Virus record (IMG/VR): IMGVR_UViG_3300045988_101024
Reading direction: 5' to 3' (one strand)
DNA: 13,636 nt
Origin: a virus
Numbering within the stretch: the stretch's first letter is position 1; every line of letters starts with the position of its first letter. The position numbers and the translations under genes were made by a program. The notes under the pieces are model-generated. The model saw nothing but the letters and a program-made list of their open reading frames with translations, had not been told where the DNA came from and did no database searches. This document shows, in pieces, positions 1 to 13,636 of this stretch.

Positions 1-94
1 GTCCGTGTATGGGAAACACATACAGGGTTGATGTTTTCGAACATGTGTTCTGTGTTCGTGTATGGGAAACACATACAGGGTTGATGTTTTTGAA
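1..94. repeat. Left inverted terminal repeat, containing a tandem duplication of a 53-bp terminal unit (1-53 and 54-94)
   Basis: The reverse complement of 13543-13636 matches 1-94 except at positions 56 and 91. Unit 54-94 repeats 1-41 with t for c at the positions matching unit positions 3 and 38. Similarity decays after 94. The window begins exactly on the repeat. Confidence 0.9.
38..51. promoter_or_regulatory. GAAC-N4-GTTC motif (CGAACATGTGTTCT) resembling a Gram-positive LexA/DinR (Cheo) box, inside the left ITR unit
   Basis: Read directly: CGAAC ATGT GTTC T, compared with the Bacillus-type consensus CGAAC-N4-GTTCG. The inner left unit has a 2-nt shorter, degenerate version (gaatttgttc). 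Confidence 0.3.
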
Positions 95-112
95 TTTGTT
101 CATTATTGTATA

Positions 113-1849: not shown

Positions 1850-2488
1850 CTAATAAATCATTAAACAAAAATTTTCTACGAAACTTTCTGCAATCAGATC
1901 ATATAAATTAAACACCACTAAATCTCTTTCGCTTTGTATCATCTGTTGAGAAGTTGTTACACCAATGTTTCCATGTGCTCTTCCGGTTCTTGTGTGTTTT
2001 CCGGTTCTTCCATCGTTTACATTTTCTTTTTCTGTGTTAGTAATACTGCCATTTTCTGTTGTGTCTCCATCCGTGATCTGTTTTGCATGATCCGCAAGAC
2101 CTGCGTTGAAAGCGGTATTCTGATCTGTAACGTTAACGCTGTTCATGATCTCGTTTGTGCTAGTGCTTTTTACAGTGTTATCTCTTGCACTAGAAGTAGT
2201 TTCATCGTCAGTATCTGTCCAATCTTCCATACGATCGTAGTTTTCGATCGGGTTGTATTCTAACACTGTCGTATCATATAACTTTTTCCAGTTAATTTGA
2301 TACTTGTTACTCCATATTGTGATACGATTTTTCATGAAATTAAAATCAGGATATAAGACTTCTAATTCCCTAGTCCGCATTAAAATTGCATCAATAGCAA
2401 TCTGTTTCTCAAGCCCTTTCGGAACATTGAACCCGTCAAACAACGTTTTGTCATAATTGTATAATCCCTCAACACTCAGTAAGCTCAA
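1850..2488 (-). CDS. Putative lower collar / head-tail adaptor protein (call based on position)
   Basis: 212-aa ORF with a TTG start at 2488, 7 nt after GGGAGGTG. The alternative ATG frame stops after a few codons. It lies directly downstream of the connector gene, as gp11 follows gp10 in phi29. I recognise no diagnostic motif. Confidence 0.55.
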   Translation of the reverse strand: MSLLSVEGLYNYDKTLFDGFNVPKGLEKQIAIDAILMRTRELEVLYPDFNFMKNRITIWSNKYQINWKKLYDTTVLEYNPIENYDRMEDWTDTDDETTSSARDNTVKSTSTNEIMNSVNVTDQNTAFNAGLADHAKQITDGDTTENGSITNTEKENVNDGRTGKHTRTGRAHGNIGVTTSQQMIQSERDLVVFNLYDLIAESFVENFCLMIY

Positions 2489-3429
2489 TCATTATCACCT
2501 CCCAATGTTTCACGTGAAACATTTTTCTTATTTGGATCGTGTCTCCAATTCACACTCACATCCACACCAAACATTTTCTTAACATCAGTGCAACTTTTCT
2601 TCCAACCATCCAACCACATTTCCATCCTTGTTGATGTTTCCACATCATTACTTTCAGCTTCAGAGGATATCATTCTTTCTTTCTTGTCTGATCTGGCAGA
2701 CGGGATACCAATTTCAGTACAAAAAAGTTCTTCCAATCTTCTCAGGGTGTCCAGAACATCACCGGCAATATAGTTTTGTCTAAGATTATTAACGAAATAA
2801 TCCCATGGTTCTTCCGTCAGATCCCCTCTTTTTATTCTTAATTTTTCGTCATAGAAAACAGCTAATTCACCGCTCATAACCTGATCCATGACTTTTTTCA
2901 GACTTTCTGCACCTGCTTTATTCCTTGCTCTGAAAACATATGCAAGTTTGCTGTTCATAACGTTCATATCTAAGGATTCCATCGTGATAGCCATTTCATT
3001 TGCATATCTTCCCACCAAATCCATAATTCCACCATAGTCAGATGTACATTTAAATAGCACACACTGTTCGCCAATTACAGGCTCAATAACACCTTTTAAG
3101 AGCGGATTACTAATAACCGCCTGAGCTGGTCTGTAAAAAACATTATACCCTTTGAGTGTACATCCCTGTGGAATAACACCAAATTTGTCGGTATTAATAA
3201 CTGCCACAGTACCCCAACAATACAAACAATAAAGAAAATAATCTTTATCCCAGTTATCAGGCACATTCCATTTCATTACAGATATAGCTTTCTGTAATAA
3301 ATACCGTTGAAAATACCAAAACAACTGTGTATTTTTACAGTGATTAGTACTCGGGTTAATACTGCTATTATACTGATTGATATAATTATACATCACAGGT
3401 GCTCCAACACCTGTATTGCATCCAAACAT
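2485..3429 (-). CDS. Head-tail connector (portal / upper collar), phi29 gp10-like
   Basis: 314 aa, close to the 309 aa of gp10, with GGAGGTG upstream of the ATG at 3429. The C-terminal segment SARSDKKERMISSEAESNDVETS resembles the conserved KKERM...SND region of phi29-type connectors as I recall it. The stop overlaps the next gene's start. Confidence 0.8.
   Translation of the reverse strand: MFGCNTGVGAPVMYNYINQYNSSINPSTNHCKNTQLFWYFQRYLLQKAISVMKWNVPDNWDKDYFLYCLYCWGTVAVINTDKFGVIPQGCTLKGYNVFYRPAQAVISNPLLKGVIEPVIGEQCVLFKCTSDYGGIMDLVGRYANEMAITMESLDMNVMNSKLAYVFRARNKAGAESLKKVMDQVMSGELAVFYDEKLRIKRGDLTEEPWDYFVNNLRQNYIAGDVLDTLRRLEELFCTEIGIPSARSDKKERMISSEAESNDVETSTRMEMWLDGWKKSCTDVKKMFGVDVSVNWRHDPNKKNVSRETLGGDND
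2506..2521. promoter_or_regulatory. Copy 1 of the perfect palindrome TGTTTCACGTGAAACA (extends to a 20-bp palindrome, 2504-2523)
   Basis: Read directly. It lies in the last codons of the connector gene (NVSRETL), 4 nt upstream of the GGAGGTG RBS and 17 nt upstream of the TTG start of the next gene. Confidence 0.85.
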
Positions 3430-3440
3430 ATATACACCTC

Positions 3441-4550
3441 CTATAAGTTATTAAAATAATCAAACCATGCTCTGGCATATACCGCACGTTCCTGATGCAA
3501 ACTAGCAGGTCTTTCATAGTTTGCCTGAAATGCAAGTGCTAAATAACCTGCATCTTGTGTGCTAGTACTCCACTGTCTCCAACTTAATGGGTATGCACTC
3601 GTGCTATACCATTGTGGCTCGATACCCCAGTTTTTAATTCCGGAGCTTTGCTGAAATTCCGCAAAAATAACGCTCAACTGTTTTTGACCATCGTACCAAT
3701 CATCATGATTTCCAAACAGCACATCAAGAACATTATATAAATCTGTTGGTGGTGTCCACTGTACAAGCCCATGTCCAGTACCTCCAATTTCGATCAACGC
3801 AGGATTGAAAGTACTTTCCTGTTGTATGTTTCCGCACAGCCCTGCTATGGCGTTTACACTCCACCCCTGTGATTTAAAATAATTATAAATCACGGTTGCG
3901 TTATTTATAGCTTTTTCATTGTTTCCACATAAGGGGGCTTCGGGATTTCCGAAATATTCACTGTTTCCTCCGATTTGCCAGTCACCACCAGAGAAAGCCC
4001 ATCTATAACAGTGTGTATAATGTATACCGCTCTGTATATCATATGTATTAATACTAACCTGATCTGGTAAAGGTTTTTTGGAAGTGTGTGCTCCCATAGT
4101 ATGACCCCCATTTTCTATATCATGTACAATTTCAGTGTGCTGATGTTCACTAGTATTAATAACAAGGATGTCACCAACATGAAAATCAAAAGATGCAAAG
4201 TCTGATATTATAATTTCTTCAAACCCGATACTTTTTAAAATTCCGCTCATGGTATAAGTTGTAAAAGGCCATGCACTCAAATTGATCTCATAGCCTGCAT
4301 GTCCTAAACCATACCATACAAAAGAGGAACAATCATAGTAGGTTATGCCATTAACTGTACGCTCGTTTCTATATTCCTGTGAATAGCCAACAGCAGGGTC
4401 ATTACATTTTTCTATCCACCAATTCATAGCTTGCAACATCAACCCACCGATCCCACCTGCACCACCAGACCCCCACGGGTTCTGACCTGCGTTAGCACTA
4501 GTCATAAGTGAAACAAATAACGAAATATTACTGGCAGGAAAACTACGCAT
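3441..4550 (-). CDS. Bifunctional tail-associated peptidoglycan hydrolase: N-terminal NlpC/P60- or CHAP-type cysteine peptidase plus C-terminal phage tail lysozyme-type domain
   Basis: The start is moved to the ATG at 4550 (MRSFPAS...), 8 nt after GGGGGTG, because the track start at 4559 is a GTG inside the RBS. YYDCSSFVWYG has the catalytic Cys context and HTEIVH the His. AIAGLCGNIQQESTFNP...GHGLVQWT matches the phage tail lysozyme signature (QQES, GLVQWT). It sits among tail genes, like phi29 gp13. Confidence 0.88.
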   Translation of the reverse strand: MRSFPASNISLFVSLMTSANAGQNPWGSGGAGGIGGLMLQAMNWWIEKCNDPAVGYSQEYRNERTVNGITYYDCSSFVWYGLGHAGYEINLSAWPFTTYTMSGILKSIGFEEIIISDFASFDFHVGDILVINTSEHQHTEIVHDIENGGHTMGAHTSKKPLPDQVSINTYDIQSGIHYTHCYRWAFSGGDWQIGGNSEYFGNPEAPLCGNNEKAINNATVIYNYFKSQGWSVNAIAGLCGNIQQESTFNPALIEIGGTGHGLVQWTPPTDLYNVLDVLFGNHDDWYDGQKQLSVIFAEFQQSSGIKNWGIEPQWYSTSAYPLSWRQWSTSTQDAGYLALAFQANYERPASLHQERAVYARAWFDYFNNL

Positions 4551-5919
4551 AATATACACCCCCCTCGAGAAACTGTTTGATCTGTTCTTTTTCGTTTCGG
4601 GTTGCTCCTGCTACATTAATAGAACCATTTTCAACTACATAGTATCCAGCACCTAACGCCTGCATTGTTCCATTGTTCATATACGGTCTGCCATTATCAT
4701 CTCTATCTTCATTCGTAATCTTATAAAAAGTTTCAACCACATACGGTATACGTGCCACTGATAATAACGTGCCATTGACACCTCTTGTATGCACATCAGG
4801 TATAGCACTTTCAACAGCATTTGCAACACCAGAAGCACTACCTAAAAAGTTACCCGTAAATAGTGATCCAATACTACTCAATAGACTACTTCCGGCATCA
4901 ATTACATTCGCCCGTAAATCACTTACCTGCACGTTAACACCGATCTGTGTATATCCCGTATACAGGGTAACACCTCCTGCGCTAACTGACATTAATCCGA
5001 CACCACTCATGCAGTCAATAGTTTCACTCACTGTCACGCTCTCAGAACTGGCAACTTTTCCACCGTCAATTTCGAAAGTTCCCCACGGATCAATCGTTAA
5101 CTGAATCCTGCGAAATGGAGAAGCATTTAGAAATGTTCCGCGCGAAACTTGTGGGTGCTGTGAAATTGGCATTGTAAAAGACCTATTGTAAAATGGTTTA
5201 TTTCCGAGCTTTAAAGCGGTTACATCACATGACCAAAACCCGAATTTTACCGAATTAACTTCTTTACTTCCAGCTCCGACATTTTCGCAAGGAAACCACA
5301 TAACAGATGTTAAATACTGAAATGGGTTGAACAAACACTTAAGTAAACTGTCTGTAATCTGTTGTCCAGAAATATTTGCCCAGTCAATATTTGAAAATAT
5401 TTTTGAACAAAAATTTGCGAAATTAGTAGGTGTAAAAGCGTAGAAATTAGTAAGCCCATCCTCACCTACAATTCCACAAACAAAATATCCCTGATTCAGT
5501 CCATATTCTGCCACCGGAAATAGTCCCTCGTTAACGACTGTTTTTTTCTTAGTAGGAGTTGCCAACGTAGGATATAAAGTATCCATAACATCCCCATTGT
5601 AACTCGTTGAGCTTCTTATAAAAAACAGGTTACTAGCTTGTATCGTATCACGATACGTAGCTAACACATCCACAACACAATGAGCAATCCACGTGTTATT
5701 CCTGTATTCCCAATCTTCCACCCAGTACGACCTTTTAAACTCTTTGATTTCACAATAGTTCCAACTCGGAGCTGATCCGGCATTTCTCAGGATAATCTGC
5801 GGATTCTCAATAGAACAAGGCTCATTCATATTACAGGAAACGGCGGTAACATCACCACCGACAACTCCTGTAGAATTAACTCTTTTACTTGCTGTCTTAA
5901 AATTGACTGTTACCGCCAT
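4543..5919 (-). CDS. Tail knob / distal tail tube protein, phi29 gp9-like
   Basis: 458-aa ORF with AGGAGG upstream. From my memory of gp9, WEYRNNTWIAHCVVDVLATY resembles ...FEIDVLQTW, a Gly/Ser-rich segment precedes IPDV..., and the C-terminal NEKEQIKQFLEGGVYY resembles NNDLQEIRTIFDNGITLW. It follows the capsid gene. Confidence 0.65.
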   Translation of the reverse strand: MAVTVNFKTASKRVNSTGVVGGDVTAVSCNMNEPCSIENPQIILRNAGSAPSWNYCEIKEFKRSYWVEDWEYRNNTWIAHCVVDVLATYRDTIQASNLFFIRSSTSYNGDVMDTLYPTLATPTKKKTVVNEGLFPVAEYGLNQGYFVCGIVGEDGLTNFYAFTPTNFANFCSKIFSNIDWANISGQQITDSLLKCLFNPFQYLTSVMWFPCENVGAGSKEVNSVKFGFWSCDVTALKLGNKPFYNRSFTMPISQHPQVSRGTFLNASPFRRIQLTIDPWGTFEIDGGKVASSESVTVSETIDCMSGVGLMSVSAGGVTLYTGYTQIGVNVQVSDLRANVIDAGSSLLSSIGSLFTGNFLGSASGVANAVESAIPDVHTRGVNGTLLSVARIPYVVETFYKITNEDRDDNGRPYMNNGTMQALGAGYYVVENGSINVAGATRNEKEQIKQFLEGGVYYA

Positions 5920-5929
5920 TTATTTCCTC

Positions 5930-7129
5930 CTATTCCAAAACAAAAACAAGGCCGTTTTCTGTAAGATCATTCCAGTATCTATCAGTGAAATGATGGTAAA
6001 CATTCCAATATCCACCTGCGCTGTTAAACGGTGTTGTACTGCTCCAATGATTAATAGTCGTAAGACCCATAGCTTCTTCGTCAAACAGCACCGCAAAAAT
6101 ATTGCTCATTGCCTGAGCTTCACCTTTTTCAACACTTCCGTCTGGTTTCATGACTGACGGTGTGACGTTAATTCCCATCGGGCTTTCCAATGACTGCCAG
6201 AAATTGACTTTTTCGTTTGTTGCGATTTTGAGGTACTGATCATGGAACGTATTACTCAGTACCGTGGTGTCAGCCGTATGCAGATCGGGACTGAACATCA
6301 TAATATTCTGCATCCGTAACGGTGTATGTCTTGCGATTTCTTTCCCCGTAATATTTGCGTGAAACCTTGTTGATCTCTCTGTGAAAAAGTCCATGTATGT
6401 CATGATCTTTGCACACGCCCATCGGTAGAAACTCGGGAAGTTATCCGCTTTACGCACATCATCCGCGGTTAACTGAGAACCGTTCTCATCATTGTACATA
6501 GTCAGAAGCTTAACAACATGCTCCCCTGTAAACCCTTCCGTTCCTTCGGTAACACCTGTCTGCCAGATGTTTTTAGCTCCAATGTAATTCGCAACACAGG
6601 CGCGTGCCATGGTTTCATGAGCCTGTTCAATCATATCCATTGTGTTCTGAGTATACATGGTCACAAACTGAGCAAACTCGTCTGGATTCCTAAACGCCTG
6701 GTCAAGCTGATCTCGGAAATAAGTCCTGTGTCTCTGGAATACCTGTCCGCCGTAGAAATTTGTCTGTAAAACTTTTCCTTTTTTGATCTTGTACATGTCA
6801 ACCGCTGTATCATCCGCAAGTGGCTGTCTCTGGTCATCTTCCCAGTCATCGTCCAACATACCCAGTTTTCTTACATGGTTTCCCCACTGCTGATTTGTTT
6901 TTCTCAAGCCTTTAAATTTGGCATTATATGGGCGAATAGAAAAGATAGTTCTATCCAATACCTGAGAAATGCTGTTCATGATCCTGTCATTTCCTGCAAG
7001 TAACGTGGTCTGAGCCTGAGCCACGAACGAGCTAGTGTCTGTGGCTTTCATGGTTTCCACGCCTGTAGCATGCTTAACGATATCATTTAATATTGTACTG
7101 ATCTGGTCAAACGTTAATGTATTCGCCAT
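5930..7129 (-). CDS. Major capsid protein
   Basis: 399-aa ORF directly after the scaffolding gene (TAATG overlap) with GGGGGTGA upstream. The N-terminus MANTLTFDQISTILNDI... and the size fit the capsid proteins of small phi29-like podoviruses. The call rests on position and size. Confidence 0.75.
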   Translation of the reverse strand: MANTLTFDQISTILNDIVKHATGVETMKATDTSSFVAQAQTTLLAGNDRIMNSISQVLDRTIFSIRPYNAKFKGLRKTNQQWGNHVRKLGMLDDDWEDDQRQPLADDTAVDMYKIKKGKVLQTNFYGGQVFQRHRTYFRDQLDQAFRNPDEFAQFVTMYTQNTMDMIEQAHETMARACVANYIGAKNIWQTGVTEGTEGFTGEHVVKLLTMYNDENGSQLTADDVRKADNFPSFYRWACAKIMTYMDFFTERSTRFHANITGKEIARHTPLRMQNIMMFSPDLHTADTTVLSNTFHDQYLKIATNEKVNFWQSLESPMGINVTPSVMKPDGSVEKGEAQAMSNIFAVLFDEEAMGLTTINHWSSTTPFNSAGGYWNVYHHFTDRYWNDLTENGLVFVLE

Positions 7130-7593
7130 TATTTTTCACCCCCTGTAAGACCCTCATAGTTTGGAGGGTTGATGATACTTGCAATAGCTTCTTCCGTAGT
7201 TACCTGCTTCGGAACAGCATTCTGCATCAGGTTGACGTTATTACTCTGCACTGCGCTTGTGAGATTTTTAAGCGCGCTGAGAACATCATTCTGATCTCCG
7301 ATCTGTCTTGCCATCTGAGCCTGTGTCTGCGGATATGCCTGTGCCTGTGCCTGTGGATATGTATGTGCCTGTGGATATGTCTGTGCCTGTGTATATCCCT
7401 GTGCACCCATCTCCTGTGGATAGATCTGTGGATAGATCTGTGGCTGTGGCTGTGGCTGTGGCTGTGGCTGTGGCTGTGGCTGTGGCTGTGGCTGTGGCTG
7501 TGTGGCACGCTGTGTTCCTGTGCCTGTCATTGCGAAAATTTCATTTTTTGTAAATCCTGCCGTAATAAGTGTGATAAGATTGTCTAACGTCAT
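7129..7593 (-). CDS. Putative scaffolding protein with an internal Pro/Gln/Tyr low-complexity linker
   Basis: 154-aa ORF with AAGGAGGG upstream and an ATGA overlap with the upstream gene. It lies immediately upstream of the capsid gene, as gp7 precedes gp8 in phi29. A helical-looking N-terminus and C-terminus flank (PQ)n, IYPQ x2 and YPQA-type repeats. Confidence 0.6.
   Translation of the reverse strand: MTLDNLITLITAGFTKNEIFAMTGTGTQRATQPQPQPQPQPQPQPQPQPQPQIYPQIYPQEMGAQGYTQAQTYPQAHTYPQAQAQAYPQTQAQMARQIGDQNDVLSALKNLTSAVQSNNVNLMQNAVPKQVTTEEAIASIINPPNYEGLTGGEK
7438..7497. repeat. Perfect hexanucleotide microsatellite (CTGTGG)x10, which is (CCACAG)x10 on the coding strand and encodes the PQ repeats
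   Basis: Counted directly: units start at 7438 and recur every 6 nt up to 7492. They are preceded by two 12-nt units ctgtggatagat (7414-7437) and followed by one imperfect unit. Degenerate ctgtgcctgtg-type repeats extend down to about 7318. Confidence 0.95.
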
Positions 7594-7835
7594 ATCTTAT
7601 AATCCCTCCTTAGATATTTTTTGTGTGAAAATCCTGTGGAAATAATTCCGTTGTGCTCGTAGGTAATTGCATACCAGTTTTCCGAATAGCATCCTAGGCA
7701 GATGCACTTTGTATTTTTTGGCATTTCCGCAATTACTGTTCCGTCTGTGTTCGGCTCTGCACGGATCATCAGAGGTTCTGTGTTCGTTGTGACTATATAC
7801 ACACCCCTGATATTTTTATCGTAATTGATCGTCAT
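7590..7835 (-). CDS. Standalone bacterial SH3 (SH3b)-like domain protein, a possible cell-wall-binding module
   Basis: 81 aa. PLMIRAEPNTDGTVIAEMPKNTKCICLGCYSENWYAITYEHNGIISTGFSHKKYL follows the SH3_3 pattern (xVRxxPxxxxxVIgxlxkGtxvxvlgxxxxWykIxyxgxtGyvxxxYL). GGGAGTG lies upstream, with ATGA overlaps on both sides. Confidence 0.65.
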   Translation of the reverse strand: MTINYDKNIRGVYIVTTNTEPLMIRAEPNTDGTVIAEMPKNTKCICLGCYSENWYAITYEHNGIISTGFSHKKYLRRDYKI

Positions 7836-8029
7836 TCTTTTTCACTCCCAGTAATATGGTCTGTAAGCTTTGTGATCGCCTGAGTGTTGTTGTTGAGTGC
7901 ATCTGTCATGTTTTTCATTTCTTCCTTGTGAGCATCGGTTTCTTTCGCCCATAGATAGAAAGTTGCGATAAGACACGCACAAGGAACACCAATGTTACTA
8001 ATGAGTGTAGATAATGAGTTAATATCCAT
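7832..8029 (-). CDS. Small single-TM membrane protein, YvrJ-like; candidate holin
   Basis: The start is moved to the ATG at 8029 (MDINSLSTLISNIGVPCACLIATFYLWAKE...), 5 nt after GGAGGTG. The hydrophobic segment followed by a charged coiled tail resembles the YvrJ family. The 103-aa track ORF extends over noncoding operator-like DNA and has no RBS. Confidence 0.55.
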   Translation of the reverse strand: MDINSLSTLISNIGVPCACLIATFYLWAKETDAHKEEMKNMTDALNNNTQAITKLTDHITGSEKE

Positions 8030-8071
8030 GTTTTCACCTCCCATGATTGAAGTAGCACAATATATAATATG

Positions 8072-8087
8072 TGTTTCACGTGAAACA
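8072..8087. promoter_or_regulatory. Copy 2 of the palindrome TGTTTCACGTGAAACA; candidate operator proximal to the late operon
   Basis: Read directly. It is intergenic, with its promoter-distal edge 42 nt upstream of the ATG at 8029. It is followed on the coding strand by catattatatatt, which holds possible -10 elements (TATTAT/TATATT). Confidence 0.8.
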
Positions 8088-8105
8088 TTAAAGAAGATGA
8101 GAACC

Positions 8106-8121
8106 TGTTTCACGTGAAACA
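8106..8121. promoter_or_regulatory. Copy 3 of the palindrome TGTTTCACGTGAAACA; candidate distal operator
   Basis: Read directly. It is 34 bp centre-to-centre from copy 2 and immediately downstream (minus strand) of the 8124-8154 hairpin and its T-run. Confidence 0.8.
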
Positions 8122-8266
8122 AAACATATACAGGCTTTGACACTCTGTATATGTATGAAAGATTAAGTGTTACAAATTCTTGAGTTGTACATACTCATGC
8201 ACATTGGATATTATATATCCCACGCTCCCAACGTGTTGTACGTGTGCCACGAACACTTGTCTTTCT
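8118..8266 (-). ncRNA. Hypothetical ~150-nt noncoding transcript, a pRNA-like packaging RNA candidate or a structured late-operon leader
   Basis: The ends are inferred from the strong promoter at 8274-8302 and the hairpin plus T-run at 8124-8154. There is no ORF with an RBS. Local hairpins include GGATAT-ata-ATATCC (8206-8220) and GTGTT-CGTG-gca-CACG-tac-AACAC. This is the only sizeable noncoding region in a genome that encodes gp10-like and gp16-like packaging proteins. Confidence 0.25.
8124..8154 (-). terminator. 10-bp inverted repeat (ACATATACAG, 11-nt loop, CTGTATATGT) followed by TTTTGTTT on the minus strand; possible weak intrinsic terminator or attenuator
   Basis: Read directly. The stem is AT-rich (3 G:C pairs) and the loop is long, so termination efficiency is uncertain. 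Confidence 0.4.
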
Positions 8267-8273
8267 ACGAAAG

Positions 8274-8302
8274 ATTATAGCAAATTAAAAAGGACAAGTC
8301 AA
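8274..8302 (-). promoter_or_regulatory. Near-consensus sigma-A promoter: -35 TTGACT, 17-nt spacer, extended -10 TGcTATAAT
   Basis: Minus strand reads aTTGACTtgtcctttttaatttgcTATAATc. The -35 is at 8297-8302, TG at 8281-8282 and the -10 at 8274-8279. It overlaps the 3' half of the early-operon terminator hairpin. Confidence 0.65.
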
Positions 8303-8311
8303 TACTTGTCC
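8281..8311 (-). terminator. Rho-independent terminator of the early/ATPase operon
   Basis: Minus strand reads GGACAAGT-attg-ACTTGTCC followed by TTTTTAATTTG. The 8-bp stem overlaps the last codons and the stop of the ATPase gene. Confidence 0.75.
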
Positions 8312-9348
8312 TTGAAATAATTTTCAAATAGTGATTTTGAGGTGATATCTTCAAACGTGATTTGGTTAGATAGGTACATATCCCATAGGTATACGTAGTC
8401 TCTGCGAAAAGCTTTTATATCCTTGTCTGACTGTGTGTAGGTGGGAGGGTTTCCTGAGTGATGCCTTGTAACGTATATCGTGTTTTTATTTTTTCGTTCG
8501 TAGATTGTAATAGAATCAATACGACATAGTGGTATTAATTCTTTGATGTTCGTTGGTTTGATGTTCGTATAATCAGCGGAATAGAATTCATTTCCGAGTG
8601 CCATGCGATTGAAATTGGAATCAGCTCCTGACATTTTGTATAGAGCTGTTTCTTTTTTCCTCTCTGAAATTGGAGAGTCATATAAGTTGAAAAGTCCAAT
8701 CCCACGTTCCTGCATAATTGACACTGACTGTTTTCTAATGTCCATTGCAGATACTTTTTCCATGAGATTATTTTCAATGAACATATTACATGAGAGATTT
8801 TCTGAGTTAGAAAATAATAGAAACTGAATTGGTGTTTCTCCATCTAACTCTCTGTTTCTGTTCATTGTCTCGTATGCGTTTTTGAACGCATATCCTGCGT
8901 TTTCAACTTTTCGCTCTCGTTTTTCAGGAATGAACTCGTCATATATTCCTATTTCTACGTCTGACGCGTCAAAACCTCGTAAATTCGCGAAAGTGTTTAG
9001 CGCGATTGCATAACCTAAAATCTCTCCTGTATATACAAGTTTTCCATTATCGTCTTTATATGTGTGATAAAATCCGGCAACATTTTTCCCAATCGTTTTT
9101 GGATAGATTGACCACCCCATGTCCTTGTTAAGTTTTTTAAAAGGCGACAGCTCAGGAATTTTGATAGTATCAACCTGTGCTTGTAAAGAACGCATGTACA
9201 CAAAAATTTTTTTATGCTCAATACAATATTTAAGACCGCCGTATGTTTTCCCCGTACCACGACCACCCCAAATATAATTGAACTTTTGTCCATATCCTAA
9301 AATAGCAGGTATCGAAAGATACCCGCTATTTTCATATAATGATAACAT
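8299..9348 (-). CDS. DNA encapsidation (packaging) ATPase, phi29 gp16-like
   Basis: 349 aa. Walker A is WGGRGTGKTYG near the N-terminus, followed by KKIFVYMRS (compare gp16 GARGIGKS...FIYVRR). Walker B-like is VEIGIYDEF. The size is close to the 332 aa of gp16. Confidence 0.88.
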   Translation of the reverse strand: MLSLYENSGYLSIPAILGYGQKFNYIWGGRGTGKTYGGLKYCIEHKKIFVYMRSLQAQVDTIKIPELSPFKKLNKDMGWSIYPKTIGKNVAGFYHTYKDDNGKLVYTGEILGYAIALNTFANLRGFDASDVEIGIYDEFIPEKRERKVENAGYAFKNAYETMNRNRELDGETPIQFLLFSNSENLSCNMFIENNLMEKVSAMDIRKQSVSIMQERGIGLFNLYDSPISERKKETALYKMSGADSNFNRMALGNEFYSADYTNIKPTNIKELIPLCRIDSITIYERKNKNTIYVTRHHSGNPPTYTQSDKDIKAFRRDYVYLWDMYLSNQITFEDITSKSLFENYFKDKY

Positions 9349-9349
9349 A

Positions 9350-9787
9350 TTATTTCTGTGGCTCTGTCATTGGAACATATGTTGAGCCATGTCCCATACG
9401 GTTAAGCGCACGATCCGGGGAAACTAGTGCGCAGATAAGATAGTCACGACCTGCTTTTGACTGCCTGTGAAGAACCTCAATAAAAAATAATTCTGGTACT
9501 TCGTCCATATCAGATAAACGGTCTGTTATATCTTCGAATGCTTCACGGAAAGTTGCTGACTGACCAGAAAATACATCACCTGTATTTGCGTCCTGCACTG
9601 AAATACAGGTGATTTCTTGTCCGTTGCTATCAGTTGTGAGATATTTCACCCACGCTCCAACACAGATAAGTTCTCTGTTCTCTACATTTTTTAACGATGT
9701 GATTGCCGGTGACTCGATAAGGTCATACTCTGAATATGTGTCAAGATTTCCTGATGATTTAATAATTCTATACTGTTTATTTTTCAT
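9350..9787 (-). CDS. Hypothetical early protein; a possible replication accessory protein such as an SSB, from position only
   Basis: 145-aa ORF with AAGGAG upstream of the ATG at 9787. It lies between the polymerase and the ATPase. I recognise no motif. Confidence 0.6.
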   Translation of the reverse strand: MKNKQYRIIKSSGNLDTYSEYDLIESPAITSLKNVENRELICVGAWVKYLTTDSNGQEITCISVQDANTGDVFSGQSATFREAFEDITDRLSDMDEVPELFFIEVLHRQSKAGRDYLICALVSPDRALNRMGHGSTYVPMTEPQK

Positions 9788-9790
9788 GAT

Positions 9791-10054
9791 TTAGTTCTCC
9801 TTTTCTTTTGATGATTTTGTAAAAGTTGCGTGCTTCAAAAACGTTTCTGCGTCCATGCCATAGATTTTTGTTTCTTCCTCATTTCGCTCCCAGTCGATAA
9901 CGATTCCTAAATTTCTTTTTTTGACCTCTTTGTTAATCTGCTCATCTGTGAAATGTCCGACTAAGACTAACTCTTTTATAATCTCACATTTATTCTCAGG
10001 GTCATAACAGATAACATTGATCTTGTTCACTGCTAACTCTCGTGTAATTTTCAT
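9791..10054 (-). CDS. Hypothetical early protein
   Basis: The start is moved to the ATG at 10054 (MKITREL...), 6 nt after GGAGGTGA, giving 87 aa with a Lys/Glu-rich C-terminus. I recognise no motif. Confidence 0.6.
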   Translation of the reverse strand: MKITRELAVNKINVICYDPENKCEIIKELVLVGHFTDEQINKEVKKRNLGIVIDWERNEEETKIYGMDAETFLKHATFTKSSKEKEN

Positions 10055-10107
10055 GTTCTCACCTCCATATATCATTTTCTATTACAATAATTATTATATA
10101 TCCAATG

Positions 10108-12189
10108 TTAATTTTTGTCAAGTGTTTCTCTAAATTCTTTTAAAGTTCTTGCATCTGCTAGAATCCTGCGGTACTCGTCTGTTATGCCTATTGTGTAAGT
10201 TGACGGACGTATAACTACGTTTTGTGTTATGTGTAGAGTGTGACCATCAACTCTGTAATCACCGTATACTGTATCATTATATACGCTTTCAGTTCCACCA
10301 GATTTTGAAAAAGTGAAACCTGTTTTAAACGCTGTAATACCTCCGTAGGTTTCAAGTTCTGACGGTGCACTTTTTTTGTTAACTCCTGCTATTGTTGCAT
10401 GTAATATTCCGTCCTCTGTGCGGTATACATATTTTTTAGCGCCTAGCGTGGAAAATTCGGTGTAAGTATCTTCATATTCATATACGCCCATATAGTGTGT
10501 GATACCGTATTTGTCCGTGGCATATGCCTTATTTAATATACTCTGATCTTTTCGTTGTTTGTTATATTCTTCAAAACGTTTCTCTATATCATCACCAGAA
10601 ATTATGACGTATTTCACGGAATCGGTATCATCGTATATATAACGATCTCCGACTATATTAATCCCCTCTTTTAATCTCAGACGCGCCCATGCTGTCACCC
10701 ATACGCCCCATTGATAAGGTAGAAATGCAGTTCGATTATATTTTTCGAGTAATGTTTCACGTGAAACACTCTCATCGACTGTGTATATATCCTCTGCCGA
10801 TTCTGTGAATATTAATGATTGTTTAACTGGTGTCTGTACCATCATTCCATATCCGGAGTTAAGCAATGCTTTTTGTAGATTGTAGAAGAGTTCCTGTTCA
10901 ACTATTCCTTTAAGCTCTGTTTTATCTGTGTAATATTTACGGAATATGTCTTTTAATGGTTCTGGCAATGAATCATATTTACTCTCATAACATTCAGTCA
11001 CTTCAAAACGTTTCCATTTATATTCATGTTTCATGATCTCATAGTCAATATCAGTGAGTGTTGTTTCAAGATACTCTGCACTTAAAATTCTACCATTGTC
11101 TAATGTTTCACGTGAAACATTTCTACATTTTGAATATGATATATAAGGAGCGCCATAGTATTTATCAATTTGTTCAATTCCTGTGATTTTGCAGCGAAAT
11201 AATAATGCTTTTCCTCTATCCAGTTTCTTTTCTATATCTTCCTCAGTAAGTGTTCCAATGTAAACAAAACGTGTCATAGGAAAAACACAATTTAAAACAA
11301 CATCGGGATATGAGGATGATCTATCACGAGAACCAATACCCATGATCTTTTTGCCATCAGCTCGTATCACAGTTCCTGAGTAGTAACGGTTGGCGTGGGT
11401 GTCTCCACCGCGAAACGCTTCTTCTAGCAGGTTGAATACATCAATATTTGGAAAAATGTCTTTATGTCTACGTGACCATCCATACATAGCTTTTTTTGTT
11501 TCACGGCGAACATAACCAGTTGACGTGAGAGGTAATGTGTATAAATTATCATTATATAAAACCATTCGCTTGTACATTGCTTCCAATAGACCAACAGTAT
11601 CGGTAGCACTATACTCCATTTCATACTCAGTTAGAGGTGTCCATGGGTAACGTTTTTTTGCATAATTGAAAATTTCACCTGATAACTTCGTATGTTCTAC
11701 TTTCATTTTTGATGTGAAAGAACTCAGCGACATATTTGTCTGGAGGTATGAACAACGAAATTCAAAACGGTTTAGCATTTCACATTTTAAAATTTTTCTC
11801 GATTTTATCGCAAAAACTTCATTCGGTGAAAAGGTATATATACCACGCAAAAACTGAAATTCATATGATAAATTGTGTACAAAAATCATGTAATACGCGA
11901 AATTATCATCATTCATAAGCTGATCTAAAAATAGCTCAAATTCTGTCCACGTTCTTCCTATTATAGTGTCAATATGTAAATCATCCAGAAACAAAATTGA
12001 AAATTGCCAAACATACATAATAGACTGTTCGATGTCATCTAACCTTGTTGTTTCAATGTCAAACGCACACATACAGTTTTTATAGCCTTTTGCTTTTTTA
12101 CTTCCTTTATTTGATCTAGTATCATGTAAACATGGGATATTCCGTATTCTATTATAATTATAACTATCAACCGTATACAGATTATCCAT
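10108..12189 (-). CDS. Protein-primed family B DNA polymerase
   Basis: 693 aa with AGGAGGT upstream. Exo I is FDIETT, Exo II HNLSYEFQF, Exo III YSATDTVGL. Motif A is DRSSSYPDV, motif B KALLNSGYGMM, motif C YIYDDTDS, and the KxY motif is GAKKYVY. The genome has ITRs. Confidence 0.97.
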   Translation of the reverse strand: MDNLYTVDSYNYNRIRNIPCLHDTRSNKGSKKAKGYKNCMCAFDIETTRLDDIEQSIMYVWQFSILFLDDLHIDTIIGRTWTEFELFLDQLMNDDNFAYYMIFVHNLSYEFQFLRGIYTFSPNEVFAIKSRKILKCEMLNRFEFRCSYLQTNMSLSSFTSKMKVEHTKLSGEIFNYAKKRYPWTPLTEYEMEYSATDTVGLLEAMYKRMVLYNDNLYTLPLTSTGYVRRETKKAMYGWSRRHKDIFPNIDVFNLLEEAFRGGDTHANRYYSGTVIRADGKKIMGIGSRDRSSSYPDVVLNCVFPMTRFVYIGTLTEEDIEKKLDRGKALLFRCKITGIEQIDKYYGAPYISYSKCRNVSRETLDNGRILSAEYLETTLTDIDYEIMKHEYKWKRFEVTECYESKYDSLPEPLKDIFRKYYTDKTELKGIVEQELFYNLQKALLNSGYGMMVQTPVKQSLIFTESAEDIYTVDESVSRETLLEKYNRTAFLPYQWGVWVTAWARLRLKEGINIVGDRYIYDDTDSVKYVIISGDDIEKRFEEYNKQRKDQSILNKAYATDKYGITHYMGVYEYEDTYTEFSTLGAKKYVYRTEDGILHATIAGVNKKSAPSELETYGGITAFKTGFTFSKSGGTESVYNDTVYGDYRVDGHTLHITQNVVIRPSTYTIGITDEYRRILADARTLKEFRETLDKN
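10753..10768. promoter_or_regulatory. Copy 4 of the palindrome TGTTTCACGTGAAACA, inside the polymerase gene
   Basis: Read directly. It is in frame as V475-S-R-E-T (DESVSRETLLEK). Confidence 0.8.
11104..11119. promoter_or_regulatory. Copy 5 of the palindrome TGTTTCACGTGAAACA (20-bp palindrome, 11102-11121), inside the polymerase gene
   Basis: Read directly. It is in frame as V358-S-R-E-T (CRNVSRETLDNG). Confidence 0.8.
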
Positions 12190-12812: not shown

Positions 12813-13035
12813 TCGGCACACCTCCCTCTAATTTATTGTAATACACAGGACGAAAGCTTTCTTCAAATTCTACAACATAGTCCTGTACGATTGCCATTGC
12901 TACCGCTCCTGTGTATGCTTTCACAAGTAGATAATCACATTTATTTTTACACTCACTTTTCATGATGTTTGGTGTATTCAATTCTTTAATATAAACCTTA
13001 TACCATGATTTCTCCCTGTTTAATGGTCTGCTCAT
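12778..13035 (-). CDS. Hypothetical early protein
   Basis: The start is moved to the ATG at 13035 (MSRPLNREK...), 7 nt after GGAGG, giving 85 aa. It overlaps both neighbouring genes. Confidence 0.55.
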   Translation of the reverse strand: MSRPLNREKSWYKVYIKELNTPNIMKSECKNKCDYLLVKAYTGAVAMAIVQDYVVEFEESFRPVYYNKLEGGVPIDNKKVLFEEE

Positions 13036-13216
13036 TATATAACCTCCATTTCTCAACACATCTCAAGATATCGTCAAAACTTGTCATTGCTGACCACATT
13101 ATATAGGGCTTATGGTCAAAACACTTTTTAAATTCAGTGCAACATTTCGATTGACTACATAAATGACAATATTCAGTATCATTACATGTAAAACAAATAT
13201 CACAATAATTTTTCAT
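12998..13216 (-). CDS. Cys-rich small early protein, a possible zinc-ribbon or zinc-finger protein
   Basis: The start is moved to the ATG at 13216 (MKNYCDICFTCNDTEYCHLCSQSKCCTEFKKC...), 9 nt after GGAGG. There are eight Cys in the first 32 residues, including CxxCxxC and CxxC spacings. Confidence 0.55.
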   Translation of the reverse strand: MKNYCDICFTCNDTEYCHLCSQSKCCTEFKKCFDHKPYIMWSAMTSFDDILRCVEKWRLYNEQTIKQGEIMV

Positions 13217-13311
13217 TTCGTATATCCTCCTGACCATTTAGCACCGCACCAAACACCATACGGAAATATTAGTATAGCTCCGAAACAAAACCAACAAATA
13301 GCATCAAACAT
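13213..13311 (-). CDS. Possible 32-aa hydrophobic micro-protein
   Basis: MFDAICWFCFGAILIFPYGVWCGAKWSGGYTK. Its start overlaps the upstream stop (TAATG) and its stop overlaps the downstream start (ATGA). It is below the ORF-track size cutoff and has no separate RBS. Confidence 0.35.
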   Translation of the reverse strand: MFDAICWFCFGAILIFPYGVWCGAKWSGGYTK

Positions 13312-13517: not shown

Positions 13518-13542
13518 AGACCATATTGTTCGCAAACACATG

Positions 13543-13636
13543 TTCGAAAACATCAACCCTGTATGTGTTTCCCATACACGGACACAGAACACATGTTCGA
13601 AAACATCAACCCTGTATGTGTTTCCCATACACGGAC
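13543..13636. repeat. Right inverted terminal repeat, with terminal unit 13584-13636 and inner copy 13535-13583
   Basis: It is the reverse complement of 1-94 with two mismatches. On this end the two tandem units are identical over 49 nt. The window ends exactly on the repeat. Confidence 0.9.
13586..13599. promoter_or_regulatory. GAAC-N4-GTTC (AGAACACATGTTCG) LexA/Cheo-box-like motif in the right terminal unit
   Basis: Read directly. A degenerate second copy, CAAACACATGTTCG, lies at 13533-13546, 15 nt upstream of the -35 of the early promoter. Confidence 0.3.

Follow-up and report, generated by a model that had tools for sequence, protein, structure and literature searches.

Chromosomal-type parS sites on the genome of a phi29-like gut podovirus and their predicted use of host ParB

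Why would a phage genome of 13.6 kb carry one and the same 16-bp palindrome five times, three of them inside its genes? The question is raised by IMG/VR virus record IMGVR_UViG_3300045988_101024, a stretch of DNA of 13,636 nucleotides (nt) that was analysed as a whole (the window), and in which the palindrome TGTTTCACGTGAAACA is found in five exact copies, numbered 1 to 5 in Table 1. An earlier note, made from the letters of this DNA, had recognised no known operator consensus in these copies. The 16-mer is, however, the canonical parS consensus tGTTNCACGTGAAACa, the centromere-like site of ParB (Spo0J), a protein that partitions bacterial chromosomes, and the presence of such sites in phage phi29 has been published. 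Taken overall, we put at about 75% the probability that the palindromes are parS sites which recruit host ParB, most likely to let the phage hitch-hike on the segregation of the host chromosome.

Identity of the repeated palindrome

It is clear that the five copies are not a product of chance. With up to three mismatches allowed, six matches were observed in the window, against a mean of 0.17 in 200 dinucleotide shuffles, none of which reached six. In copies 1 and 5 the symmetry goes further, giving the 20-bp palindrome AATGTTTCACGTGAAACATT. Every gene of the window is carried by the minus strand, and copy 1 falls within the last 10 codons of the connector gene (2485-3429, 314 amino acids (aa)), seven codons ahead of the stop (...KKNVSRETLGGDND and stop), with the ribosome-binding site GGGAGGTGA of the next gene starting 2 nt downstream; close relatives show 0-2 mismatches here. 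The DNA polymerase gene (10108-12189, 693 aa) contains copies 4 and 5, which are translated in the contexts ..ESVSRETLLEK.. and ..RNVSRETLDNG.., respectively. All three coding copies (1, 4 and 5) are thus read in the VSRET frame, and one of the alternative frames contains TGA. On the positions and non-randomness of the copies, the 20-bp extension, the placement of copies 1, 4 and 5 and their common frame, the description given in the earlier note was accurate.

Chromosomal ParABS centromeres and their parS sites are said to have been treated by Lin and Grossman in 1998. In the ParB literature, the parS consensus for ParB/Spo0J is identical, letter by letter, with the 16-mer of the window, for example in Hyphomonas, in Burkholderia chromosome I and in gut bacteria; Livny et al. 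2007 is cited there for the chromosomal sites. Sites of this type, bound by a host protein, are known from all major bacterial phyla. The five window sites match the fully symmetric form of the consensus exactly. In a domain search of every open reading frame (ORF) in the window, neither a ParA nor a ParB domain was found, so the phage shows no partition cassette of its own and the protein used must therefore be that of the host.

The copies in the polymerase gene allow constraint on the DNA to be separated from constraint on the protein. In an alignment of 11 polymerases, homologues with 46-51% identity show, at either site, a stretch of equal length made up of unrelated residues (for example, CRQIMNPYT-DNGRIL and DDKPITELLEK), and at copy 5 the unrelated segment of the homologues stands just as long ahead of the conserved DNGRIL. 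At copy 4, which is exact in 18 of 19 close relatives, the five third-codon positions show one change in 95 cells, when 69% of third positions vary over the gene as a whole. Copy 5 is exact in six of the 19, with amino-acid changes in the rest. A protein-driven conservation of VSRET, which the earlier note had allowed for the coding copies in the event that VSRET were universally conserved, can thus be ruled out, since VSRET is not kept in the homologues and the third-codon positions of copy 4 are nearly fixed. Because VSRET is neither conserved nor an insertion, the coding copies must be constrained at the DNA level; of the two options offered earlier, that the element constrains the protein or was inserted into it, only the former stands. 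Selection acts here on the DNA itself, independently of coding needs, and the coding copies offer a clean natural example of a predicted DNA-binding site overprinted on essential coding sequence. The distant homologue L072 has a parS at another place in its polymerase, again read as VSRET. In the 458-aa structural gene, position 5134-5149 holds the relic of a sixth site that is still good in close relatives.

With the exact consensus, the excess over chance and the constraint on the DNA all in place, it is very probable that the five palindromes are chromosomal-type parS sites, and we predict that they serve as nucleation sites for host ParB (Spo0J).

Table 1. Positions of the parS sites and of other features in the window
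Feature	Position	Strand	Context	Remark
parS copy 1	2506-2521 (20-bp palindrome 2504-2523)		Connector gene 3' end, read N-V-S-R-E-T-L	Exact match
parS copy 2	8072-8087		Promoter-distal member of the tandem pair	Exact match
parS copy 3	8106-8121		Promoter-proximal member of the tandem pair	Immediately preceded by the terminal hairpin and U-run of the structured RNA
parS copy 4	10753-10768		Inside DNA polymerase gene (..DESVSRETLLEK..)	Best conserved site of the clade
parS copy 5	11104-11119 (20-bp palindrome 11102-11121)		Inside DNA polymerase gene (..CRNVSRETLDNG..)	Lineage-specific site
Decayed parS relic TGTTCCGCGCGAAACT	5134-5149		458-aa structural gene	4 mismatches; [AG]GTTTCACGTGGAACA at the syntenic position in close relatives
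Promoter-like site TTGACT-17-TATAAT with TG extension	8274-8302	minus		Also conserved in relatives
Conserved structured non-coding RNA	8124-8265	minus	Multi-helix domain 8265-8157; terminal hairpin 8154-8124, then U-run	
Left inverted terminal repeat	1-99			Pairs with 13538-13636
Right inverted terminal repeat	13538-13636			

Distribution among related and unrelated phages

The family was surveyed through 81 loci (1.0 Mb) that were picked by polymerase homology alone, blind to the motif. In these loci 106 exact sites were counted; with up to one mismatch allowed the number is 141, spread over 53 of the loci. For 300 composition-matched control palindromes with a permuted half-site, the mean was 0.02 sites and the maximum 1. 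Intergenic positions account for 47 of the 106 exact sites, compared with about 10% non-coding sequence, and the true coding copies are almost always read in the VSRET frame, although both counts are inflated by relatedness. The frame bias can be explained by the TGA in one frame together with amino-acid tolerance. The earlier note had proposed to look for the motif in relatives and at conserved positions: the motif is there, but its positions differ between lineages and are mostly non-homologous across the family. Such positional turnover fits a selection for having sites, not for a fixed position, and the sites have arisen repeatedly and independently within this phage family.

An exact-match scan of viral contigs for the 16-mer extended the distribution to more than 120 contigs, many of them multi-copy, with guanine-plus-cytosine (GC) contents of 30-72%. 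These contigs belong mainly to two unrelated phage groups, namely the protein-primed family of the window and podoviruses with a terminase and an SU10-type portal. A co-occurring binder was sought by BLASTP of the window ORFs and by all-against-all ORF clustering over 121 motif-bearing viral contigs, and no protein family common to all 121 was found by these two methods. A 16-mer that stays unchanged across such different genomes, without a shared phage protein, points to a universal host factor and hence to parS.

Some of these contigs are worth describing individually. Exact parS sites are found at 276, 374 and 895 of L089 (72% GC) and at 3235 and 3758 of L034 (68% GC), each set within at most 1.5 kb. 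In L022 (2657-3444), L062 (10535-11462) and L074 (240-961), three to five exact sites are gathered in 0.7-0.9 kb of mostly non-coding DNA; these three are podoviruses unrelated to the window, with an Sf6-like small terminase, a large terminase, an SU10-like portal and about 51-54% GC. In L022 and L062 the cluster is placed between the two terminase genes. The arrangement in this group, known from partial contigs, looks centromere-like. This last group suggests that the parS trick reaches beyond the phage family of the window.

Among 21 cultured relatives, sites with at most one mismatch are present in 11 of 16 Firmicutes phages and in none of five phages of other hosts, so that within this set parS on a phage without par genes is confined to Firmicutes phages. 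Four sites are found in phi29, two in Nf and one each in VMY22 and Harambe; the C. perfringens phage phiCP7R has seven, including three tandem pairs 25-26 bp apart. One site each was found in Clostridium phage HM2, Hungatella phage CH17P1, C. symbiosum phage CS229P3, Clostridium_AQ phage CI461P3 and Amedibacillus phage AD70P3, and two in Enterococcus phage vB_EfaP_2/Chl-5. At the same threshold, no site was found in the Firmicutes phages GA-1, CPD2, CPD7, Staphylococcus P68 and Streptococcus Cp-1, or in Curtobacterium Pize, Salmonella astrithr, Pectobacterium DU_PP_III, Acinetobacter Phanie and Vibrio K58 g2. Of the 12 cultured phages whose hosts form spores, nine have sites; the trait is common with such hosts and not exclusive to them.

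The arrangement in phiCP7R (L213) is unusually regular. Its sites start at 5096/5122, 8130/8155, 10233 and 12108/12133, and six of them form three near-identical cassettes, AAAT-parS-GTTAA..AAAT-parS-ATTA, with 25-26 bp spacing. Each cassette occupies a short intergenic stretch with a ribosome-binding site just downstream, and its RNA could fold into a hairpin of about 20 bp with a U-rich tract behind it. The phage also has a SpoVG-like gene.

As for the host of the window phage, the nearest database relatives are unannotated human-faecal phage contigs, and relatives at 39-50% polymerase identity were binned with Clostridia, Clostridiales and Faecousia metagenome-assembled genomes, which is weak evidence of host. 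According to the ParB literature, gut Clostridia have ParABS with the same parS consensus. The host is probably a gut bacterium belonging to the Clostridia.

Possible roles of the sites

ParB dimers nucleate at parS, close as clamps dependent on cytidine triphosphate (CTP), slide onto the neighbouring DNA and bridge into a condensate, and ParB also interacts with ParA/Soj and loads SMC. On the window genome, host ParB would bind the five sites after injection; its CTP-dependent clamps would spread, and from five sites could coat the whole 13.6 kb. Bridging between ParB molecules would then tie the phage DNA to the complex that ParB forms at the replication origin of the host, and the phage genome would travel with the host origins, into the forespore in a sporulating host or into daughter cells in slow or arrested infections. 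A 'lytic' phage could persist in this way, as has been described for phi29. That ParB actually binds the window sites and spreads on the phage DNA is inferred, as is the pay-off, be it hitch-hiking or spore entrapment; for hitch-hiking with host chromosome segregation as the purpose of the sites, we would give about even odds.

The use of host parS by a phage of this kind is already known from phi29, and the present case falls under it. phi29 has five parS sites, and in the summary that PMC2731898 gives of Meijer et al. 2005, Spo0J is reported to help bring the phi29 genome into the prespore. Our own scan of phi29 found TGTTTCACGTGGAACA at 10445, 15903, 17243 and 18760, plus one site with three mismatches at 3528. 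In connector gene 10, the 10445 site forms part of the 3' end, translated as ..ENVSRGTSDGETNE and stop, which is the place and the frame of copy 1 in the window, with the two connectors only 22% identical. Nf has a site at the same connector-end junction, and the 17243 site of phi29 directly follows the gp16 ATPase gene. Multiple parS sites on one genome, as in phi29-type entrapment, are likewise present in the window.

Several observations weigh against hitch-hiking through host ParB and have to be set beside this precedent. Of the polymerase relatives, about a third (26 of 81) are without a site even with two mismatches allowed, and GA-1, CPD2 and CPD7 are phages of spore-formers without sites. 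The Enterococcus phage has sites in a non-sporulating host, and spore entrapment therefore cannot be the whole story. The Acinetobacter and Vibrio phages lack sites despite the ParABS of their hosts, and intergenic sites tend to be found shortly upstream of ribosome-binding sites or promoters, a placement that would suit a regulatory role as well. The Spo0A boxes that phi29 has at its main promoters and genome ends for lytic arrest have no counterpart: TGTCGAA occurs once in the window, inside a tail gene, versus 1.94 expected, and is thus not enriched, and TGNCGAA occurs five times versus 6.0 expected, never near a promoter or a genome end. Nf, with one consensus Spo0A box only, is also entrapped (PMC2731898).

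A regulatory side-role would concern the tandem pair (copies 2 and 3) above all. On the coding strand, the stop codon of the gp16-like gene is followed by a hairpin with a promoter, the structured RNA, one parS, an 18-nt spacer, the second parS, the sequence ATATTATAT.TTGTGCTA, a ribosome-binding site and the holin-like gene. The starts of the two copies are 34 bp apart within the intergenic region 8030-8298, as the earlier note had it, and 28 nt downstream of copy 2 comes the ribosome-binding site (8042-8035) for the first late gene, which encodes a 65-aa holin-like protein (7832-8029). The pair does not, however, directly adjoin the terminator-like hairpin, since the promoter and an RNA of about 150 nt stand in between. 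The -35 element of this promoter (8302-8274) is embedded in the hairpin (8313-8290) that follows the gp16-like ATPase gene. Transcription from it probably yields the structured RNA and, by reading through, also covers the late operon with the parS pair in its leader; a consensus scan downstream of the pair found no separate late promoter.

From this layout, a ParB-dependent control of genes may be proposed, in which host ParB at parS, and above all at the pair, would act as a repressor or roadblock tying the late lytic genes to the ParB or cell-cycle state of the host. It is the nearest surviving version of the earlier 'operator' idea and could coexist with partition, but as the explanation of the sites we consider it rather unlikely. 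The pair does have the region's one strong promoter on its upstream side and the ribosome-binding site for the first late gene on the other, with no consensus promoter found downstream, and the 18 nt that follow it, ATATTATAT.TTGTGCTA, hardly vary among 21 relatives. Other phages have their intergenic sites at most 35 nt ahead of ribosome-binding sites, and ParB-dependent repression beside parS is documented in Pseudomonas aeruginosa (PMC5521831). On the other hand, short intergenic regions push any non-coding site towards a ribosome-binding site, three of the five window sites are intragenic and far from any promoter, and site positions vary across the family. The spacing of the pair is 31, 33, 34, 35 or 37 bp in close relatives, so that the pair is not phased on the DNA helix, and neither the fixed spacing nor the fixed promoter position of an operator pair was found. 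An operator pair for late genes, 'analogous to but unlike' the phi29 p4 sites, is thus unsupported as the primary function, all the more since most copies in the family are at non-homologous places, some of them within genes.

The Enterococcus phage vB_EfaP_2/Chl-5 (L220) also speaks for gene control. At 4784-4815, an exact parS overlaps and supplies the -35 element (TTCACG) of a promoter that has 10 of 12 matches and an extended -10 (TGGTATAAT), that is, TTCACG-17-TATAAT with TG, about 25 nt before the scaffold gene. Host ParB might gate this late promoter.

An offensive use of the sites would be to deplete host ParB by titration, because replicating phage DNA amounts to hundreds of copies with five sites each. 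Disturbed segregation, SMC loading or Soj/Spo0J checkpoint function would then be the benefit, for example by blocking escape of the host into sporulation, and not partition of the phage. The density of sites (five per 13.6 kb in the window, seven per 18.4 kb in phiCP7R), the lack of phage par genes and the sites in an Enterococcus phage with a non-sporulating host are all in keeping with it. However, titration is pure inference with no precedent in the literature searched, the published role in phi29 is entrapment and not sabotage (PMC2731898), and a single site, as in many relatives, would make a poor sponge; we judge it unlikely.

Even less likely is an element that works at the RNA level, with the transcribed palindromes forming hairpins in mRNA and the duplex of the pair, placed between the structured RNA and the late mRNA, acting there in termination, attenuation, processing or stabilisation. 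The folding energy is -5.9 kcal/mol for one site by itself and -22.3 kcal/mol (z = -7.7) for the 16-bp stem of the window pair; the phiCP7R pairs, behind which come U-rich tracts, reach -25 to -27 kcal/mol. Since each copy is palindromic, two copies can pair in RNA, but this is a by-product, as any two nearby copies of one palindrome must pair. The loop length differs among relatives, and an RNA element leaves the parS identity, the single intragenic copies and the recurrence of the same 16-mer in unrelated phages of 30-72% GC unexplained. The window pair may have a regulatory or RNA side-function in addition to ParB recruitment; such a function explains neither the parS identity nor the intragenic single copies.

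The earlier note had also thought of dimeric regulators and of sites for nucleoprotein organisation. The most likely binder is indeed a dimeric protein that builds a nucleoprotein complex, but one of the host, and a regulator encoded by the phage is not needed. Such an operator, bound as a dimer by a small early protein such as the Cys-rich 79-aa protein (12998-13237), seems most improbable: several small early ORFs are without an assigned function, but in the ORF comparisons the window and the unrelated motif-bearing contigs have no common protein family and hence no candidate for a co-occurring binder, the motif is a host-protein site found across all major bacterial phyla, and phi29, with its well-studied regulators, uses such sites for Spo0J. 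Finally, a miniature, spreading palindromic element that inserts in frame can practically be dismissed, despite the VSRET frame of most coding copies and the 20 bp shared by copies 1 and 5, since the polymerase alignment rules out insertion (neither site adds length relative to the homologues), target duplications and shared flanks are lacking, and sites arise and decay by point substitution among relatives.

Genome context and comparison with known systems

That the window is a complete linear, protein-primed genome of 13.6 kb is shown by its 99-nt inverted terminal repeats, within each of which a unit of about 50 nt stands twice in tandem (1-49 and 54-99). The terminal repeats of phi29 are 6 bp; those of the window are far longer and more structured. 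Phage_connector, Phi29_MCP and Podovirus_Gp16 (gp16-type packaging ATPase) domains were found, as well as a tail lysin and an SH3 protein; a p6-like double-stranded-DNA-binding protein and the holin-like protein are also encoded, and the polymerase matches that of phi29, its only solved relative. Terminal repeats, connector, capsid, gp16, p6-like protein and polymerase together make the window a phi29-like protein-primed podovirus.

The structured RNA upstream of the tandem pair (about 150 nt) is nearly invariant in 21 relatives, exceeding the flanking genes in this respect. Its predicted fold has a long closing helix and three internal hairpins, with 47 predicted pairs, seven of them showing compensatory changes. 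An Rfam scan of the window gave nothing relevant and no match for this RNA. Because it directly follows the gene for the gp16-like packaging ATPase, it is a candidate packaging RNA (pRNA).

Three further observations concern individual places of the genome. The closest GenBank contig, MT839763.1 (L001, 82.8% identity), starts 3 nt before its connector-end parS (positions 4-19), and the repeated palindrome may break short-read assemblies at this site. At 10093-10121 on the minus strand, a perfect 12-of-12 sigma-70 consensus, TTGACA-17-TATAAT, overlies the last polymerase codons upstream of the p6-like gene and may be an internal promoter for the p6-like protein, a 145-aa protein and the ATPase block. 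The minus-strand gene at 7129-7593 encodes a 154-aa protein that contains a long (PQ)n / YPQ repeat and takes the place of a scaffold or head protein in the gene order; in an unrelated group-B phage (L012), a scaffold-like protein also has NVSRET beside a PQ repeat.

If the window sites do recruit ParB, the host must have a canonical ParB, and a nominally lytic gut phage would be carried passively with the chromosome, possibly into spores, which bears on the persistence of gut phages, their spread between people and the prediction of hosts from sequence. The survey suggests that the strategy of phi29, for which this one model phage has stood since 2005, is widespread among uncultured relatives. 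No general survey of parS in phages or in Picovirinae was found in the literature searched, the coverage of which is incomplete and no proof of novelty; the commonness of the sites in uncultured gut relatives and in some Clostridium and Enterococcus phages is apparently unreported. More tentatively, and with somewhat less than an even chance of being right, the copying of the host centromere could be a trait that the small, 'strictly lytic', protein-primed podoviruses of Firmicutes, among them abundant uncultured phages of the human gut, have in general and have evolved repeatedly, and not something peculiar to phi29. The sites would then be re-invented by point mutation, in essential genes (where one frame is tolerated) and at gene junctions, and the tandem cassettes of some phages (three pairs in phiCP7R, one pair in the window) may let ParB gate late or lysis genes. 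Hidden persistence in spores or in a carrier state could, if this holds, explain stable carriage and transmission with spore-forming gut commensals.

Of the known systems, phi29 and Nf are closest to the window: they are small protein-primed podoviruses with common core genes and have sites inside genes and at gene ends. Like the window, phi29 has five parS sites and no par genes, with NVSRGT at the connector 3' end where the window has NVSRET in the same frame, and with another site downstream of the gp16 packaging ATPase gene, where the window has its tandem pair. However, phi29 uses the B. subtilis variant TGTTCCACGTGAAACA, whereas all five window sites are fully symmetric; moreover, the window differs from phi29 in its tandem pair in the late leader, in its two sites in the polymerase gene and in having all genes on one strand. 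The chromosomal ParABS centromeres share the identical 16 bp with the window, and their sites are also multiple, clustered and often in coding sequence; in contrast, the window sites lie on a 13.6-kb virus and not near oriC, are about 100-fold denser and belong to a replicon without ParA or ParB. The plasmid prophages P1 (parABS) and N15 (sopABC) also use a ParB-type centromere for phage inheritance, but they encode their own ParA and ParB and have unrelated centromeres, whereas the window copies the host chromosomal site and has no par genes. The p4 and Spo0A operators of phi29 resemble the window pair as short repeated protein-binding sites in the early/late intergenic region, yet they have other sequences and a fixed promoter geometry, unlike the variable spacing and the mostly intragenic copies of the window.

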